In this document: positions 45,146 to 54,705 of the stretch, in pieces | Layout: every line of letters begins with the position of its first letter | Numbering within the stretch: the stretch's first letter is position 1 | Translations under genes and position numbers: made by a program | DNA from: Dehalococcoidia bacterium | GTDB lineage: Bacteria; Chloroflexota; Dehalococcoidia; Bin125 | Assembly: GCA_963555985.3 (NCBI GenBank) | Contig: OY820591.1 | Span: 3,072,001 to 3,136,000 of the forward strand | Direction of reading: 5' to 3' | DNA length: 64,000 bases | The notes under the pieces: model-generated | The model's database searches: none | Told to the model about the DNA's origin: nothing | What the model saw: the letters and a program-made list of their open reading frames with translations, nothing else

Positions 45146-46162
45146 TCATTCCCGCGAAGGCGGGAAGGTGGGTTCACATTGCAACTGCAACAACTGCCGA
45201 CCGAAGACTTCGGCCGGGGAGAGGTAGTCGAGGCACTGGCGGGGGGTGTTGTTGTACAACTGCAGCACTTCGATCAAACGCGCGAGGCTGAGTTGGGCGA
45301 GGTCGAGCCGGCGCGGCAGGACCCGGCGCAGGCGTCCGATCGCATTCTCGATCCCGCCCTTCTGCCAGGGCGCGTAGGGGTCGCAGAAGAAGGTCTCCAC
45401 GCCCAGCCGGTGCAGTTCGTAGTGGCGGGCGAACTCGGTCCCGTTGTCGAACGCGACCGTGCGCCGCAGGGCGGGCGGCCAGGCGCGGAGCAGGCTGAGC
45501 AGCAGGCGCGCGACCGGAGCGGCCGCCTTGCCCGCCACGGGCAAGCCCACGAGCAGCCGCGAGGAGCGCTCGTGCAGCATCAGCAGGAGCGGACCGCCGC
45601 GCCCGAAGAGCATCAGGTCGGCCTCCCAGTGACCGGCTTCGAGCCGCCCGGCGGCCGCCGCCGGGCGCTCGCTCAGGGGCCGCCGCAGTTGGATGCGCTC
45701 GACCGAACTGCCGCCTTTGCGCCCGCGCCAACCGCGTTTCGCCTTGCGCCGCGGCAGATACTGGCGCCAACCGCCGCCGCGGCCGGGCTTGGCCCGCGAG
45801 GCTTGGGCGTAGATGAAGCGATAGATGCTCTCGTGCGAGATCACCGGCGCGCCCGCCTCGCGCGCCAGCCGGCCTGCGACCTGTTGCGGCGAGAGCCCGC
45901 GGGCCAACTCGCGCAGCACCCGCGCGCGCAGCTGATCGTCGCGTTCCAGCCGCGAACCGCGCCAGCGCCGCGCCTGGGCCTGTTGCTGGGCGTAGTCGGG
46001 ACGGTAGCCGTCGCGCGCCGTGTTGCGTTTCAGCTCTCGAGCAATCGTCGATGGCGAGCGATCCAGAGCTGCAGCGATCTGCCGGATCGAGCGCCCCTCG
46101 GCCTGTAAGCGGGCAACCGCGCATCGCTCCGCCAGGTCCAACTGCGTGTACTGCGCGCCCAT
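45146..46162 (-). CDS. IS30-family transposase
   Basis: HTH SIRQIAAALDRSPSTIARELKRN, ISHESIY, GHWEAD, DNGTEF, PWQKGGIEN. Confidence 0.95.
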   Translation of the reverse strand: MGAQYTQLDLAERCAVARLQAEGRSIRQIAAALDRSPSTIARELKRNTARDGYRPDYAQQQAQARRWRGSRLERDDQLRARVLRELARGLSPQQVAGRLAREAGAPVISHESIYRFIYAQASRAKPGRGGGWRQYLPRRKAKRGWRGRKGGSSVERIQLRRPLSERPAAAAGRLEAGHWEADLMLFGRGGPLLLMLHERSSRLLVGLPVAGKAAAPVARLLLSLLRAWPPALRRTVAFDNGTEFARHYELHRLGVETFFCDPYAPWQKGGIENAIGRLRRVLPRRLDLAQLSLARLIEVLQLYNNTPRQCLDYLSPAEVFGRQLLQLQCEPTFPPSRE

Positions 46163-46326: not shown

Positions 46327-46414
46327 AGCCCAGCCATCGGCGATAGCCTGACCAAGAAGTCAAGAGCCGCGCACAGACACAGCTGCACAAGCGTGGGTGA
46401 AGAGGATCGACCCG

Positions 46415-47341
46415 ATGATCGACACGGTGAACTACGGACGTCTGAGCGAGGGCCTGCTGATCTACCAGATCGCTATGCAGCGCTTCATTGCCCGAACGCT
46501 GCGAACCGCCAACAACGGGGCAGGAGACTGGTTCCGTGATCTGGCCCTCACGTCGCTCAAGGGCGATCGGCTCAAGAACTTGGAGCGAAATTTGACGGAA
46601 ACTGACGACGGATCCAATCCAGAGCAGCTACTAGACGCCAGCCATTTTCCAGAGGTAATCGATGCCAACTGGGAATTGTTCAGGGGTGCTTTCAAAGATC
46701 GCAACCAGGTAAAGAGTCAGACCCGACGGATCAGAAAATGGCGGCCGCCCTGGGCGCACCCGTCTGACAAGACAACAGGAGAATTGACGAATGCCAATGT
46801 GGATGAACGACTGGAGACATGCCAGCTCGTAGTGGGAAGGTTCGACTCCGAGGCCGCAAAGCGGCTTGAGACCTTGCGGACGCGCACGAACGCTGATGCA
46901 GACGCGGCAGCATCGAACTCCATGGCAGGCGACGAATCGACTTCGCCGGTGACAGACAATAGTGAAGTCGATCCAGAACTGGATGCACGGATTGAACAGT
47001 GGAGAGCCGAGCACGCAGAAAAAGTCAAGCGACTGCGTCGGAAGTTTCGGCTGTATCAGCAAGCGGCGGCAAGGAAAGCAGCCCTGAGTGTGGCTGAAAG
47101 GGCGCTCGCAGATGCAGAGTCGGACTTGTATGAGGATGTTCAGGAGGAGTGGAGTGAAGCGCATTCCTTCCAGTGGGACGACTGCTTGGCAGGTCTACTC
47201 CAAGCGACCTTCGATGCAGGCTATCCGCGTGGACACCTTGTCGAGGACTATGGCAACGGCAGTGGAACCATCCAGTTTGACGTATCCGAGAGAGACTTGA
47301 GATTCGACATAGAAATCAAAATTGAGCTCCGAGACGGGTGA
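46415..47341 (+). CDS. Swt1-like HEPN domain protein with coiled-coil C-terminus
   Basis: LLDASHFPEVIDANWELF...RKWRPPWAH (Rx4H); lower GC than flanks. Confidence 0.6.
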   Translation: MIDTVNYGRLSEGLLIYQIAMQRFIARTLRTANNGAGDWFRDLALTSLKGDRLKNLERNLTETDDGSNPEQLLDASHFPEVIDANWELFRGAFKDRNQVKSQTRRIRKWRPPWAHPSDKTTGELTNANVDERLETCQLVVGRFDSEAAKRLETLRTRTNADADAAASNSMAGDESTSPVTDNSEVDPELDARIEQWRAEHAEKVKRLRRKFRLYQQAAARKAALSVAERALADAESDLYEDVQEEWSEAHSFQWDDCLAGLLQATFDAGYPRGHLVEDYGNGSGTIQFDVSERDLRFDIEIKIELRDG

Positions 47342-48320: not shown

Positions 48321-48460
48321 TCTCCCCCTTGAGAGCCTGTCCCCGCGCAGGCGGGGAGGGAGATGCCGCAGGCAGAGGGGGTGAAGACGCCGCAGCCCTC
48401 TCTGCCACGCCACGTCTCACTCCCTCTGTCACGTAGAGCCTGCCCCCTACGAAGGCGCAG
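48321..48460. repeat. CTCTCCCC-type repeat cluster with AGCCTG modules
   Basis: TCTCCCCCTTGAG[AGCCTGTCCCCGCGCAGGCGGGG]AGGGAGATGCCGCAGGCAGAGGGGG and a second degenerate module near 48437. Confidence 0.7.
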
Positions 48461-48527: not shown

Positions 48528-50432
48528 ATGCCCCAACAGTCGCAGCCTGAGCACGAGGTCGTCATCCAGCGCAACCGACGCATCCCCATGCGCGACGGTG
48601 TGGGGCTGGCGACTGATGTGTACCTGCCCGCCCGCAACGGCGAAGCGGTCGCGGGACCCTGGCCCACCCTGCTCACCCGCACTCCCTACGACAAGCTCGG
48701 TTTCGCCGCCGACGCCGAGTGGTGGGCGCGGCGCGGCTATGCCCGCATCATCCAGGACGTGCGCGGACGCTTCGCCAGCGAGGGCGACTTCTACCTGCTC
48801 AAGAACGAGGCCGAGGACGGCTACGACACGATCGAATGGCTCGCCCAACAGCCCTGGTCCGACGGCAAGGTCGGCACGATCGGCACTTCCTACATGGGCT
48901 GGGTCCAGAGCGCCGCCGCAACCCAAAACCCGCCTCATCTCGCCGCGATGTGGGTCAACCAGGGCGCGTTCAACGGCCTCACTTCGTCCCTCCGCCAGGG
49001 CGGAGCGCTGGAACTGCGCTGGCTCGCCTGGGCCTTCTGGAACGCCCCTGTCTCGCCCGAAGCTGCACAAAATCCTGCGCTCTACGCCGCCCTCGATCAA
49101 GCAGCCGTCGACCTGCGCGGCTGGCTCAACCGGCTGCCCTGGAAACCGGGCGCCACCCCGCTCGCGCTCACTCAGGACTACGAGCGCTGGGCGATCGACC
49201 TGCTCACCCAAGCCCGCGAGGACGACTGGCTCTGGCAACTGCCCTCAATGAACTTCGAGAAGTTCGTCGAGCAGACCGCCGACGTGCCCACGGTCTACTC
49301 CGGCGGCTGGTACGACAGCTACACCCGCGCCACGACCGAATCGTTCGCCGCCTTCGCCGCCGCCAAGTCGTCGCCCCAGTACCTCGTGATGGGTCCCTGG
49401 ACCCACGGCGAAGTCACTCTCGACCGCACCTGGTCGGGAGACGTCGATCTCGGCCCCAACGCGCCCACCAGCGGCAACCTGTCCAAAAGCGTCATTCACC
49501 ATCGACTCCAGTTCTTCGACCACGCCCTCAAGGGTCTCGACTCCGGCTGGGGCGAGGTCGCGCCCGTGCAGATCTTCGTCATGGGCGGCGGCAGCGGCCG
49601 CAAGATCGTCTCCGGCCGCATGGATCACGGCGGCGAGTGGCGCGACGAGCAGGAATGGCCGCTCGCCCGCGCCGAGACGGTCTCCTGGTATCTGCACCGC
49701 GACGGCAGCTTGCAAAGCGAAGCCGCGGGCGAGGACGGCGGCTCCTCCAGTTACCTATTCGACCCCAACGATCCAGTTCCCTCGATCTCGGCCAACGTCT
49801 CCTCCCTGCGCGAATACGCGCCCGAAGACCCGACCCTCAGGCAGCAGATCTGGCCGCCCACCCAACGCTCGCGCGAATTGATCATGCCGGGAGGCGCAGA
49901 CCAGCGCACCCGTCCCGACGTCATGGGCGCGGAACCGCCCTACCTCCCCACCGCCGCTCGAGGCGACGTGCTCTCCTTCCGCAGCGAACCGCTGGCCGAG
50001 GATGTCGAGGTCACCGGACCCGTCACCGTCCGCCTCTACGTCTCCACCGACGCCCCCGACACCGATTTCACCGCCGCCTTGCTCGACTGCTATCCCCCCA
50101 ACCCCGACTACCCCGAGGGCTACCATCTCCGCCTGACCGACAGCATCAAGCGCCTCCGCTTCCGCAACGGCTTCGACCACGAGCAGCTGGTTGCACCGGG
50201 GGAGATCGTCGAGGTCTCAATCGAGCTCTACCCGACCAGCAACCGCTTCGCCGCCGGCCATCAAATCGGCCTCGAACTCAGCAGCTCCAACTACCCCCGC
50301 TTCGACATCAACCCCAACACCGGAGAACCCATCGGCCAAGAAACCCACCGCCGCTCCGCCCTCAACACCATCCACCACAACCACGAACACCCCAGCCGCC
50401 TCGAACTCTCCGCAATCCCCGCACTAGACTGA
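48528..50432 (+). CDS. CocE/NonD family hydrolase
   Basis: MRDGVGL, RTPYDK, QDVRGRFASEG, GTSYMG nucleophile, GWYD, GPWTH, SSSNYPRFD. Confidence 0.93.
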   Translation: MPQQSQPEHEVVIQRNRRIPMRDGVGLATDVYLPARNGEAVAGPWPTLLTRTPYDKLGFAADAEWWARRGYARIIQDVRGRFASEGDFYLLKNEAEDGYDTIEWLAQQPWSDGKVGTIGTSYMGWVQSAAATQNPPHLAAMWVNQGAFNGLTSSLRQGGALELRWLAWAFWNAPVSPEAAQNPALYAALDQAAVDLRGWLNRLPWKPGATPLALTQDYERWAIDLLTQAREDDWLWQLPSMNFEKFVEQTADVPTVYSGGWYDSYTRATTESFAAFAAAKSSPQYLVMGPWTHGEVTLDRTWSGDVDLGPNAPTSGNLSKSVIHHRLQFFDHALKGLDSGWGEVAPVQIFVMGGGSGRKIVSGRMDHGGEWRDEQEWPLARAETVSWYLHRDGSLQSEAAGEDGGSSSYLFDPNDPVPSISANVSSLREYAPEDPTLRQQIWPPTQRSRELIMPGGADQRTRPDVMGAEPPYLPTAARGDVLSFRSEPLAEDVEVTGPVTVRLYVSTDAPDTDFTAALLDCYPPNPDYPEGYHLRLTDSIKRLRFRNGFDHEQLVAPGEIVEVSIELYPTSNRFAAGHQIGLELSSSNYPRFDINPNTGEPIGQETHRRSALNTIHHNHEHPSRLELSAIPALD

Positions 50433-50463: not shown

Positions 50464-50492
50464 TTGACAAGGCCCATCAAGCCCGATAAGGT
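50464..50492 (+). promoter_or_regulatory. sigma70-type promoter upstream of the NYN gene
   Basis: TTGACA-17 nt-TAAGGT. Confidence 0.65.
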
Positions 50493-50496
50493 GAGC

Positions 50497-50570
50497 GCAC
50501 CCCCCCTACCGGCTAGATGGTAGGGTCGAGGCCGCCGCACGACGGCGGCCTCTGTCTTTCCACAGGGTGC
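50497..50570 (+). ncRNA. putative structured leader / small RNA upstream of the NYN nuclease
   Basis: Stems CCCTACC/GGTAGGG and GAGGCCGCCG/CGGCGGCCTC followed by TGTCTTTC; closing stem GCACCC/GGGTGC. Confidence 0.5.
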
Positions 50571-50573
50571 ATA

Positions 50574-51203
50574 GTGATCACGAACGTCTACATTGACGGC
50601 TTCAATCTCTACTACCGCGCACTCAAAGACTCTCCTTTCAGATGGCTCGATCCGCGCAAACTGACGGAAGCGCTGTTCCCGCAAGACGAGATCAGACGGA
50701 TCTCCTACTTCACTGCCAACCTCCTTCCCCGCGTGGCAAACCCGGGCCAGACGCGCCGGCAGCAAACCTACTTGCGTGCGCTCAACACCTTGCCGGGACT
50801 TGAAATTCACTACGGATCGTTTCGCTCCGGCATCAAGCGTCGCCCGCTAGCGCAGCCGATACGGGGCATGCCGACCCACGTCGAGATCCTTGACTCGGAA
50901 GAGAAGGGTACAGACGTCAACCTGGCTACCCGCCTGCTGGTGGATGGGTTCAGGAGTGAATACGAGCAGGCCGTCGTCATCTCGAACGATGCCGATTTCG
51001 CCGCTGCAATGCGGTACGTGAAAGACGATCTTGGCTTGCGGGTCGTGCTCGTCAACCCCGACCGACACCGCAACAGCCCCAAGCAGTTGGCCGATGCAGC
51101 AACCTATGTGAAGAGACTCTGGAAGAGCCACCTGCGCCAAAGCCAGTTCCCGCCGACACTGACCGACCAAAAGGGCACCATCACCAAACCACAGGGCTGG
51201 TAA
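50574..51203 (+). CDS. NYN domain (PIN-fold) protein
   Basis: YIDGFNLYY, EEKGTDVNLA, ISNDADF. Confidence 0.9.
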   Translation: MITNVYIDGFNLYYRALKDSPFRWLDPRKLTEALFPQDEIRRISYFTANLLPRVANPGQTRRQQTYLRALNTLPGLEIHYGSFRSGIKRRPLAQPIRGMPTHVEILDSEEKGTDVNLATRLLVDGFRSEYEQAVVISNDADFAAAMRYVKDDLGLRVVLVNPDRHRNSPKQLADAATYVKRLWKSHLRQSQFPPTLTDQKGTITKPQGW

Positions 51204-51315
51204 TACGACCGAGAACGCGAGTACCGCCCGGAGTTGTCGGATTCCCCCGGCCCAATCATTGCTGCGTTCCGTCTCGGCAATCTCGAGGCGCAGACGAGGA
51301 CAGCGCCGCACATGG

Positions 51316-51346
51316 CGTCGTACTCGCGGCAAGCGCAGGTACGACG
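51316..51346. repeat. degenerate CGTC-type hairpin
   Basis: CGTCGTACTCGCGGCAAGCGCAGGTACGACG. Confidence 0.6.
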
Positions 51347-51411
51347 GAAACCTAGCGCCCGCCAATCTGCACAGACCCGAAGACCCAACACGCCCTGAGT
51401 ATCATGGGGAC

Positions 51412-51846
51412 ATGACTGAGATTCGATCAGGCGCAGATCTGGAACGAGCCGTCGCACGAGCCGGCGAGGCGCTCGGGTTGGACGTTGAGACCCAGGTCGT
51501 CATGGGCGACCGCATCTGGGGACCGCGACGCCGCGTCGACGTGGTACTCAGCAAGCCGGATTCTGAGCGCATGATCGGAATCGACTGTAAATTTCAGCGA
51601 GTCGGCGGGAGCGCCGAGGAGAAGATTCCGCTGACTGTGGAGGACATAGAAGACTGGCCAATCCGGGGAATCGTGGTGCTCCACGGAGAAGGCTTCTCAC
51701 GGGACTTCAAGCCATTTCTAAAAGGTCGCGGGCGGATCGTCGAATTCAAGCGGCTCCTGGAATGGTTGCGCTTCTACTTCCGACTGCCACGCGAGCAGGC
51801 AGAACAAGCGGAGATGCTGCTCAACAGAGAACTTCAGGCTGTCTGA
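51412..51846 (+). CDS. small PD-(D/E)XK nuclease, putative restriction endonuclease
   Basis: VDVVL...IDCKFQRVGGSAEEKIP; adjacent to a Dam-type methyltransferase. Confidence 0.75.
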   Translation: MTEIRSGADLERAVARAGEALGLDVETQVVMGDRIWGPRRRVDVVLSKPDSERMIGIDCKFQRVGGSAEEKIPLTVEDIEDWPIRGIVVLHGEGFSRDFKPFLKGRGRIVEFKRLLEWLRFYFRLPREQAEQAEMLLNRELQAV

Positions 51847-52664
51847 ATCAAATACTCCGACACAACCCCCCGACCACTCACATCCGCATTAATCGCCCGG
51901 CGAGCCGCAACCTCCGACATCTCAAACGCGCCACCCGCGTACAGACCCGCCACCGCCGGGTGACCCGAATTCGACAGCGTCACCGCCGCCCCCCGGCGCG
52001 CCAGCCGAGCGGCCGTCGCCGCCAACCGGCGCTGCTCCTCCGCCCCGAACTCCGACTTCGTATACGCCGTGAAATTCGCCGTCTCGCTCAGCGGCACATA
52101 CGGCGGATCGAAATACACAAAATCGCCCGACCCTGCCTCGCTTGGCGCCTCGGCGAAATCCGACACCCGCAACTCAACCCCTTGCAGCGCCTCCGACACC
52201 GCCCGCAAATTCGCCTCGGCGCAGATCGTCGGATTCGTGTAGCGGCCGTGAGGAACGTTGAACTCGCCCCGGCTGTTCACCCGATACAGCCCGTTGAAGC
52301 AGGTCTTGTTCAGAAAAATCATCCGCGCCGCCAGACCGACCTCGCAGGTCAGACGCTTGCGCCGAATCGCGTAGTAATAGTCGGCGCGGACGGGGCTGGC
52401 GCGGTACTTGCGCTGGTGGATATTGAGGACGTGGATCAGCTCCTCAACGTTGTCCCGCACCTGCCGCCAAGTGACGATCAGCTCCTCGTTGCTATCCGAG
52501 AGCACAGCGCGTTGAAAACGCCCCTCGTTCCGCAGCGCGAAGAACAGCGCCCCGCCGCCCAGAAACGGCTCGTAATAGGTCGCAATCCGCTCCGGCGCAG
52601 CCTCAAGCAGCTTCGGCAGCAGCGCCGTCTTACCGCCCGCCCACTTCAGAAACGGACGCGCCAT
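51834..52664 (-). CDS. dam: DNA adenine methyltransferase (Dam/D12 class)
   Basis: PFLKWAGGK, EPFLGGGA, CFNGLYRVN, FNVP, DPPY, LSNS. Confidence 0.92.
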   Translation of the reverse strand: MARPFLKWAGGKTALLPKLLEAAPERIATYYEPFLGGGALFFALRNEGRFQRAVLSDSNEELIVTWRQVRDNVEELIHVLNIHQRKYRASPVRADYYYAIRRKRLTCEVGLAARMIFLNKTCFNGLYRVNSRGEFNVPHGRYTNPTICAEANLRAVSEALQGVELRVSDFAEAPSEAGSGDFVYFDPPYVPLSETANFTAYTKSEFGAEEQRRLAATAARLARRGAAVTLSNSGHPAVAGLYAGGAFEMSEVAARRAINADVSGRGVVSEYLIQTA

Positions 52665-52665
52665 C

Positions 52666-53232
52666 TCAACCGCCCGCCTGCGCCATTGCGCGCTCAATCG
52701 CACGATCAATCCGCGTCATCAACAACTCCGCCCGCGACTCGAACATGTGCCGAACCCAATCGATCCGCCAGCGCTGGTCAAGCGACAGCAGGCCCTCAGC
52801 CAACGCCGTCTCTACCTCGTCCTCATCCTCGATTCGCACCTCGCCGTCGGGAAAGATGATCGCATCGAGCAGCAGATCGTGAAACTCCACACGCTCGCCG
52901 TCGCAGATCACGCGGTCGATCACGTCGAGCCGATAGACCCGCAAACTCCCGTCAGGCCGGTGCAAGCGATACGCGCCATAAGGCAGATGCGGCCACCAGA
53001 CTCCCCAACTCGTAAACCCGCTCGCACCCGGATAGCGCGCCATCGCCAGCGGATCCGCATCCGCAACCCAGCGCCCCACGATCAGCTCCGGGCTGACCAG
53101 CCAGCGTTCGAGAGGGAACTCCTTGATCCCGCCGTCAAGCGCGACTTTGCGCTCCATCAGGCGTCCGGGGGGCGCAACCAGCGCGGGCGCCGCCGGGCTT
53201 GCGGAGGGCAAGGTATCGATGCTCTCGCTCAT
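52666..53232 (-). CDS. DUF402-like domain protein
   Basis: YRLDVID...FHDLLLDAII.PDG..IEDEDE pattern. Confidence 0.65.
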   Translation of the reverse strand: MSESIDTLPSASPAAPALVAPPGRLMERKVALDGGIKEFPLERWLVSPELIVGRWVADADPLAMARYPGASGFTSWGVWWPHLPYGAYRLHRPDGSLRVYRLDVIDRVICDGERVEFHDLLLDAIIFPDGEVRIEDEDEVETALAEGLLSLDQRWRIDWVRHMFESRAELLMTRIDRAIERAMAQAGG

Positions 53233-53388
53233 GCGCGCAGGGTAACCGCGCAATGACAGAAATGGCGGCGTGCGGTCGTGTGGCGCTATGTCTGATCGTG
53301 ATACATTGGCTGACGGGTTTGGTGGGGTGTTCCCGTCTCGCTCGTTGGACTTGAGGATGCTTGTCCGCCGTGGCTGTGAGCCTGCTGA

Positions 53389-54705
<1,317 letters not shown>

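Follow-up and report, generated by a model that had tools for sequence, protein, structure and literature searches.

In a stretch of 64,000 nucleotides of DNA from a Dehalococcoidia bacterium, hereafter the window, we describe a 740-base cassette at positions 50464-51203 that joins a promoter, a predicted RNA of ~60 bases with two hairpins and a terminator, and the gene for an NYN-type nuclease. The cassette suggests an undescribed RNA-plus-nuclease module that resembles toxin-antitoxin (TA) systems. We favor a type III-like reading, in which the RNA acts in trans on the NYN nuclease, most likely as its inhibitor, and place about half of our confidence in it. In the following, we present the anatomy and conservation of the cassette, RNA units that occur without the nuclease gene, and distant homologs on plasmids and phages, and weigh the other explanations along the way.

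Anatomy of the cassette

The initial annotation of this DNA had proposed a TTGACA-17-TAAGGT promoter, two hairpins of 7 bp and 10 bp, the latter perfect and with a T-rich tail, and limits at 50464 and 51203. The promoter lies where it had been placed, with a weak -10 box; both hairpins are evident in the sequence and in the fold; and the limits are exactly the points at which conservation switches on and off in an alignment of 81 regions (Table 1). When the window was scanned for promoters, no site was returned; the promoter of the cassette goes uncounted because TAAGGT matches the -10 consensus at three of six positions only. Across the family, this hexamer aligns with an extended -10 element of the form TGGTAnnnT.

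Table 1. Features of the cassette and of its neighborhood in the window
Feature	Position	Strand	Remarks
CocE/S15-type hydrolase gene	48528..50432	+	Pfam Peptidase_S15 and PepX_C; upstream, outside the module
-35 box TTGACA	50464..50469	+	read from the sequence; conservation across the family (81 sequences) starts exactly here
-10 box TAAGGT	50487..50492	+	17-nt spacer; weak, 3/6 consensus matches, without TG extension
Predicted small RNA, ~62 nt	50499..50560	+	both ends predicted
Hairpin 1, 7-bp CCCTACC/GGTAGGG	50504..50525	+	50504-50510 pairs with 50519-50525; 8-nt apex
Hairpin 2 (terminator stem), perfect 10-bp, GC-rich	50528..50552	+	50528-50537 pairs with 50543-50552; 5-nt loop
T-rich tail TGTCTTTC	50553..50560	+	directly 3' of hairpin 2; terminator scan
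Shine-Dalgarno-like AGGGTG	50564..50569	+	4 nt 5' of the start codon
NYN-domain nuclease gene, 209 aa, GTG start, HEC-09 family	50574..51203	+	Pfam, PADLOC, AF2, Foldseek
PD-(D/E)XK nuclease ORF	51259..51846	+	likely start ATG 51412; Pfam PDDEXK_11, E = 2.2e-17; outside the module
D12-class N6-adenine DNA methyltransferase gene	51834..52709	-	Pfam MethyltransfD12, E = 2e-58; PADLOC type II methyltransferase; outside the module

We infer the ends of the small RNA from the sequence, with the 5' end at an invariant A, 7 nt past the -10 box, and the 3' end in the T-rich tail. Its two hairpins are separated by a two-base spacer, and the second one, together with the tail, was reported by a terminator scan, so that transcription is predicted to terminate here. 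Folding of 50494-50580 gives three helices with an energy of -46.9 kcal/mol (z = -4.34), a stability that none of 200 shuffles reached. The third helix is a possible outer stem between GCACCC (50497-50502) and the complementary GGGTGC (50565-50570), which the initial annotation had seen as closing over the ribosome-binding site; this stem is present in the window, but it is specific to it, as only 29.6% of the alignment cells are paired in the 78 distinct leaders. The leader of the window is without direct repeats, and a covariance model of the leader gives a single match there. tRNA genes, which were sought for comparison with the RNA, are absent from the window.

The NYN protein

The longest open reading frame opens at ATG 50517, within hairpin 1; homology puts the start at GTG 50574, and an equivalent start is found in 18 of 21 aligned homologs. 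The resulting length of 209 residues is that of most database relatives, and the alignment to the HEC-09 profile, which opens at residue 5, agrees with this start. On the basis of its sequence, the gene product belongs to the NYN nucleases: its sole Pfam match is to NYN (PF01936; E = 2.3e-11) and exceeds the curated cutoff of 24.2 bits with a score of 44.8, and the PADLOC profile HEC-09 matches over its full length, residues 5-209 aligning with positions 6-202 out of 203 in the profile (E = 4.7e-38). Five acidic residues (D8, E110, D114, D139 and D141) do not vary among 109 diverse relatives, in agreement with the intact acidic motifs that had been noted at the outset, and the same holds for the C-terminal P206...W209.

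For structural comparison, we used an AF2 model that was computed from these 109 diverse sequences and has a pLDDT of 97.3; a model from 21 close sequences, with a pLDDT of 57.6, was set aside. The top PDB folds in Foldseek are 2qip and the NYN domains of MARF1. The model predicts a PIN-like fold with a conserved acidic pocket, an agreement at the level of the fold rather than a residue-by-residue mapping onto the catalytic aspartates of MARF1. A sequence search of the PDB with the family profile returned only a chance match to a serpin (E = 0.77). The family comprises 5484 clusters at 50% identity (E <= 1e-3). Genes of the HEC-09 type are annotated merely as 'NYN domain-containing protein', and their RNA carries no annotation.

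Conservation across related loci

A scan of species-representative genomes yielded 211 places that encode relatives, of which the best 80 were analyzed. They stem mostly from metagenome-assembled genomes of Dehalococcoidia and other Chloroflexota, and their proteins are 71-76% identical to that of the window. The lack of a conserved structure upstream of homologs had been named as an outcome that would refute the initial annotation; such a structure is present in 80/80 loci, a count that overstates the case as these loci are not independent, and the ~110 nt upstream of the gene hold the promoter, the two hairpins, the T-tract and the Shine-Dalgarno sequence in the same arrangement as in the window. 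Regular expressions find TTGAC[AGT] in 58/81 leaders, the extended -10 element in 57/81 and a Shine-Dalgarno-like word, mostly GGGAG in the relatives, in 66/81 (the expression missed the window's own), while a tail resembling CTCTGTCTT follows in 81/81. The start codon is TTG in 75 of the 80 loci, GTG in two, CTG in two and another in one, and most loci carry an in-frame TAG two codons upstream of it, so that there is no longer reading frame.

To delimit the conserved region, we aligned 81 regions, spanning -300 to +900 and taken from the window and the 80 related loci. The -35 box (50464) marks the onset of conservation and the stop codon (51203) its end, and the flanks are unrelated. Mean pairwise identity is 0.884 in the RNA core, even with its variable loop included, versus 0.31-0.35 in the flanks; at codon positions 1, 2 and 3, it is 0.854, 0.906 and 0.569, respectively. 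The loop of hairpin 2 is variable, with a pairwise identity of 0.43. Judged by these identities, the RNA core is constrained like codon positions 1 and 2, which points to strong purifying selection. Given these limits of conservation and the unrelated flanks, the cassette is therefore an autonomous unit.

The same alignment settles the simplest explanation for the hairpin, namely that it terminates transcription of the upstream cocE-like gene and that everything else is coincidence. Hairpin 2 does lie 96 nt past the cocE stop codon with no other terminator-like site in between, but the leader accompanies the NYN gene in all 80 other loci, whatever unrelated sequence lies upstream. The outcome in which the hairpin serves cocE alone thus did not occur, and we consider this reading refuted, with a probability close to nil.

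The initial annotation had further located the module next to a restriction-modification-like (RM-like) pair. In the window, such a pair is indeed there, the D12 methyltransferase gene being convergent with the PD-(D/E)XK nuclease reading frame, and the cassette and the pair lie in a stretch of slightly lower GC content (0.61-0.62 versus about 0.66). It is, however, not a conserved neighbor: the PD-(D/E)XK nuclease does not recur beside NYN in related loci, and the flanks are as dissimilar as stated above. Likewise, embedding in an Hma (helicase-methylase-ATPase) system is absent in the window, where the neighbors are the CocE-type hydrolase, the PD-(D/E)XK nuclease and the D12 methyltransferase. 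Recurrent neighbors in the related loci are a TraG/TrwB-like coupling protein (24 cases), a Replic_Relax protein (20) and a PAPS-reductase-like protein (15), and a large serine recombinase is encoded just 3' of NYN in 21 of 81 loci. At least nine genomes hold two to three copies each among the 80 loci. Since recombinase, coupling and Replic_Relax genes recur in this way, many copies appear to travel on integrative or conjugative elements.

This mobility raises the question of whether the hairpins work as DNA, say as a site at which the elements that carry them recombine or transpose. The multiple copies, the sharp boundaries and the nearby recombinase would be expected of such a site, yet we regard this as very improbable: the recombinase is found in no more than the 21 loci just mentioned, and no matching repeat marks the other end of the cassette. 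Moreover, all 100 units that we found, including those without a nuclease gene, have one orientation relative to NYN, and distant homologs (see below) swap the sequence and yet keep a hairpin and a U-tract, which is a signature at the level of RNA.

Structure of the RNA

The RNAalifold consensus of the family consists of the two static hairpins alone. In hairpin 2, 95.9% of the cells are paired, and four of the ten pairs show compensatory changes. The seven core pairs of hairpin 1 are each kept in at least 80/81 sequences, and all changes are one-sided, with no compensatory change within the 81 sequences; a U-G wobble is retained in 73/81, where the window has C-G. Counted over the whole structure, pairs that are changed on both sides are not above shuffles (163/500 reach the value). 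The covariation that the initial annotation had proposed to test upstream of NYN homologs is accordingly found in hairpin 2, but neither in hairpin 1 nor in the structure as a whole. The high sequence conservation of hairpin 1 suggests that it is recognized in a sequence-specific manner, and leaves little room for covariation.

The mutually exclusive terminator and antiterminator pairings of a riboswitch or attenuator were not found: the consensus fold of the 81 leaders contains no conserved antiterminator pairing, and a shifted version of the outer stem, with 4 bp, does not exceed shuffles (120/500 reach its value).

Rfam 15 scans of the window and of a typical relative (L013) gave no relevant family up to E = 10, and those of eight plasmid loci gave nothing up to E = 1 besides the RNAI genes of the replicons. 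Sub-threshold matches to miRNA, RNAI and CRISPR-DR families were judged to be due to chance. The motif of AbiF, a system to which we return below, is one of the Rfam families.

RNA units without a nuclease gene

Running the leader covariance model over the window and the 80 loci, we recovered the 81 expected copies and 18 extra ones on the same strand; a regular expression added one further unit (L017) and missed one divergent copy. Altogether, there are 19 extra promoter-RNA-terminator units in 18/80 loci, none of them on the opposite strand. Fourteen stand in tandem, 100-250 nt upstream of the NYN-linked unit and each with its own promoter, while one sits 1.4 kb upstream and four sit downstream of NYN. 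For at least 12/19, similarity ends straight after the T-tract, and six are followed by the next TTGAC box 5-37 nt further on. Short unrelated reading frames come after the extra units, and no NYN frame; only four units (L073, L004, L028 and L058) retain remnants of a Shine-Dalgarno sequence and a start. With scores of 59.8-104.6 bits, the extra units bracket the copy in the window (70.1 bits). A unit that persists with promoter and terminator but without a gene behaves as a small RNA gene and not as a leader, and by this sequence-level reasoning the RNA looks like a stand-alone small RNA gene.

These units bear on the main rival explanation, a purely cis-acting 5' leader, which might be a constitutive attenuator, a stabilizer of the mRNA 5' end or a site for autoregulation by the NYN protein. 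Under this explanation, a dangerous nuclease would be kept low; the terminated short RNA would arise as a side effect, and duplication would have left the orphan copies behind. It agrees with the position of the RNA, which in 81/81 is immediately 5' of NYN and on its strand; a weak start codon behind a terminator would suit tight repression, and the four units with Shine-Dalgarno and start remnants look as truncated gene copies would. A model for the autoregulatory variant is Regnase-1, which cuts a stem-loop in its own mRNA; RNases of the MARF1/Regnase type share the catalytic fold with the NYN protein described here, but are eukaryotic, multidomain and without a dedicated small RNA gene. We nevertheless consider a cis-acting leader unlikely. 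An attenuator should always be found in cis to the frame that it regulates, whereas at least 12 of the extra units keep promoter, hairpins and T-tract with nothing beyond and score as well as the window's copy. In addition, the conserved antiterminator is missing, the outer stem and the 4-bp stem fare as described above, and the tandem hairpin units before a single terminator on an Escherichia coli plasmid (see below) would be unusual for an attenuator. As the RNA is identical in sequence to the leader of the mRNA, sequence alone cannot separate a role in cis from one in trans.

Distant homologs on plasmids and phages

With tblastn, we found homologs of 27-41% identity on 447 plasmid records (207 from Klebsiella, 57 from Xanthomonas, 46 from Escherichia and the remainder from others) and in three phage records. 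From these 450 records, we read 18 upstream regions by hand, 17 from plasmids and one from a prophage record, with protein identities of 27-42%. In 14/18, one or more structured hairpins are followed by a strong intrinsic terminator, a gap of 20-40 nt and the NYN start, which is often GTG or TTG in the distant homologs, while the RNA sequences differ. The Leptospira homolog has the same base of the hairpin 1 stem as the window, and the Granulicella homolog has two hairpins of unrelated sequence. Klebsiella, Pseudomonas, Marinobacter and Xanthomonas have a hairpin in common, with a conserved 8-nt loop and a covarying stem. Phaeobacter has one hairpin, and this type recurs on a 4.6-kb E. coli plasmid (CP057030.1) as a tandem array with a period of 33 nt, comprising 2.6 copies at 96% and further degenerate ones directly 5' of a canonical terminator and NYN. 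Read as sequence, this succession of array, terminator and NYN is the textbook type III layout.

Other upstream regions are built differently. In Thiothrix, an HTH reading frame overlaps the NYN start by 4 nt, as in type II TA systems, and in Paenarthrobacter, NYN follows a HEPN gene in an operon, both without an RNA leader. The gap before NYN in a Mycobacterium prophage is unstructured (z = -0.36), and a Mycobacterium plasmid has an RHH reading frame together with a hairpin alone. When the phage records were searched for phage-borne mimics of the RNA, the E. coli array matched nothing, and the Klebsiella-type RNA matched one record that itself bears NYN; the collection contained no orphan phage copy.

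Comparison with known systems

Type III TA systems are defined by a toxin of the ToxN/AbiQ fold, an upstream RNA, a terminator and tandem repeats that the toxin processes. To our knowledge, all classical type III toxins share the ToxN fold, and few families of RNA antitoxins are known. The cassette resembles ToxIN, CptIN and TenpIN in that a single promoter is followed, all on the same strand, by a structured RNA, then an intrinsic terminator and finally a ribonuclease gene. The RNA lies directly upstream of the nuclease gene behind one promoter in 81/81, and the terminator between the RNA and the reading frame is predicted from a conserved stem with compensatory changes. Further points of likeness are that more RNA than protein is expected from the design, that the genes occur on plasmids and other mobile elements, and that the E. 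coli plasmid homolog has the tandem hairpin array with its 33-nt period. The differences concern the protein, which has an NYN (PIN-like) fold and not that of ToxN/AbiQ, as seen from its only Pfam match and its Foldseek neighbors, and the RNA, which forms a single unit between promoter and terminator, both in the window and in close relatives, and not an array that has to be cut by the toxin. Tandem direct repeats are absent in the window, and a second complete unit is present in 14/80 relatives. Formally, the module is therefore outside the known type III families, since its fold differs and the window is without a repeat array; the likeness is one of layout only.

Searches of the full-text literature outside subscription journals revealed no link of NYN proteins to type III systems or to an RNA antitoxin; one article merely lists an NYN gene in a table (PMC10441182). 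HEC-09, which is of the same protein family as the NYN protein of the window and has MARF1 NYN domains as structural neighbors in common with it, has been described as a single-gene, Hma-embedded, NYN/MARF1-like defence candidate; cloned with its native upstream region in E. coli, it gave no defence against the phages tested, and the portion of the preprint available to us mentions neither an RNA nor toxicity (bioRxiv 10.1101/2024.01.29.577857). While HEC-09 is treated there as a single gene within Hma, the NYN gene of the window is not part of an Hma system and has an RNA upstream. An inhibitor RNA on the cloned native upstream region could explain why the clone showed neither defence nor reported toxicity.

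The listing of the family as a defence candidate is also relevant to another explanation, in which the RNA supports the nuclease instead of inhibiting it, as its scaffold, activator or specificity subunit or as a sensor or decoy for an invader factor, and the cassette is an RNA-dependent defence system rather than a TA module. The RM-like pair that adjoins the cassette in the window would fit this, and the conservation of the RNA far past the needs of its stems, including the retained wobble, points to specific recognition by a protein, as in any ribonucleoprotein. We rate this as improbable: the predicted RNA excess, the weak start, the RNA-only units and the multi-hairpin array suit a neutralizing sponge better than a stoichiometric cofactor, and the HEC-09 clone with its native upstream region did not protect E. 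coli from the tested phages.

[quoted passage not shown] It shares with our cassette a non-ToxN, RNase-like protein, toxic in the case of AbiF, with a conserved and structured non-coding RNA upstream of it. AbiF is, however, Abi_2/HEPN-like, whereas the protein here is an NYN protein, and the RNAs differ, with none here in Rfam.

Proposed mechanism

For the cassette, seen as a self-contained module of two components, we propose the following course of events. A sigma-70-type promoter would drive an RNA of ~60 nt, consisting of a short 5' tail, the sequence-conserved hairpin 1, and hairpin 2 with its U-rich tail. Hairpin 2 and the tail would act as an intrinsic terminator at which most transcripts end, and a minority would read through into the NYN frame, to be poorly translated from its GTG or TTG start. 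With most transcripts terminated and a weak start, the RNA would therefore far outnumber the NYN protein. The small RNA would then act in trans on this protein, which it would most likely bind and inhibit in the manner of a type III RNA antitoxin. Once transcription stops, through loss of the element or shut-off by a phage, the RNA would decay and a presumably toxic nuclease would be set free.

The initial annotation had left a choice between a type III-like and an attenuator-controlled NYN module. The RNA units without a reading frame and the E. coli array favor the type III-like half of this proposal, while the stem that was to close the ribosome-binding site did not hold up in the relatives. 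Several points run counter to a type III-like reading: HEC-09, the one family member tested so far, was without phage defence in E. coli, only one RNA unit is present in the window, and the protein has an NYN fold; in addition, covariation is modest, the -10 box of the window is weak, and three of the 18 distant homologs are leaderless.

Implications

Looking beyond the window, we tentatively put forward, with somewhat more doubt than confidence, that HEC-09-type NYN proteins and their upstream small RNAs make up a large, phylum-spanning and unrecognized class of RNA antitoxins and RNases, amounting to a fourth superfamily of type III TA systems with no structural relationship to the others. 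If this is true, the RNA classes diversified along with the NYN clades: Dehalococcoidia and Leptospira would have the single-unit class and small E. coli plasmids the array of tandem hairpins, and plasmids of Klebsiella, Pseudomonas and Xanthomonas would carry the hairpin whose loop is conserved. The modules would then serve to keep plasmids and integrative elements stable, or to abort infection by phages upon the shut-off of transcription, and the extra RNA-only genes would be buffers or anti-addiction devices. A second, unrelated nuclease fold with dedicated RNAs would mean that the principle of an RNA sponge and an RNase behind a leaky terminator arose repeatedly.

Neighbours of the NYN cassette

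Upstream of the NYN cassette and its cocE-like neighbour, GC content is low around an ORF of 314 aa, beside which lies an IS30-family transposase gene (see table). The ORF gave a weak, sub-threshold match to Swt1-like HEPN domains (E = 1.9e-4) and a weak match to the PADLOC model PDC-M34B; it may be a further RNase-type defence gene. The hairpin that follows the MBL-fold gene matched miRNA models only below threshold (E = 0.018) and is probably just a terminator-like stem.

Downstream, the PD-(D/E)XK nuclease ORF shares its last bases with the 3' end of the D12 methyltransferase ORF, which converges on it. The nuclease ORF is listed from the TTG at 51259; its true start is probably the ATG at 51412. 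Further along, the 5' ends of a DUF402-domain ORF and of an ORF on the opposite strand, which to judge by its sequence is presumably adenylosuccinate synthetase-like, overlap by about 100 nt. Probably one of these two ORFs in fact begins further downstream than listed.

Features around the NYN cassette and at two plasmid-borne NYN loci
Feature	Sequence	Position	Strand
IS30-family transposase, adjoining the 314-aa ORF	window	45146-46162	-
314-aa ORF, low-GC patch (0.58-0.60)	window	46397-47341	+
Hairpin between MBL-fold and cocE-like genes	window	48352-48438	+
13-nt overlap of nuclease and methyltransferase ORFs	window	51834-51846	
DUF402-domain ORF	window	52666-53493	-
ORF, presumably adenylosuccinate synthetase-like	window	53395-54705	+
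Tandem array of 33-nt hairpin units, then canonical terminator, 5' of NYN	L081 (CP057030.1)	about 566-720	
HTH-domain ORF, 4-nt overlap with NYN start	L085 (Thiothrix plasmid)	242-604	

Putative RNA and protein partners of NYN genes on plasmids

An NYN gene is also present on small (about 4.6 kb) mobilisable plasmids of E. coli, Klebsiella and Salmonella (matches H9-H24, L081 type). In L081, the single plasmid of this type that was inspected, NYN is preceded by a hairpin array and terminator, a region over which the record carries no annotation.

A second class of RNA precedes the NYN coding sequence on plasmids of Klebsiella, Pseudomonas, Marinobacter and Xanthomonas. Here a strong terminator comes after a hairpin whose 8-nt loop is conserved (L086, L089, L091, L092, L087, L096, L088); the stem sequence varies from genus to genus, and one 5.3-kb Klebsiella plasmid carries two such units.

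At the NYN locus of the Thiothrix plasmid, which is without a structured RNA, the gene overlaps an HTH-domain ORF. In this plasmid, the toxin family seems to be paired with a protein antitoxin, in a type II-like arrangement. The label given to NYN homologues in some plasmid records (H38, H78, H79) looks like a propagated misannotation, because these homologues have a PIN-like nuclease fold.

Probable mobile-element setting in Dehalococcoidia

Among the best 80 of 211 loci encoding NYN relatives, several genomes carry two to three NYN cassettes. Many of the Dehalococcoidia cassettes have genes for a relaxase, a T4 coupling protein and a PAPS-reductase-like protein on one side and a large serine recombinase gene on the other. 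This arrangement suggests that these cassettes belong to related integrative elements that may also be conjugative.
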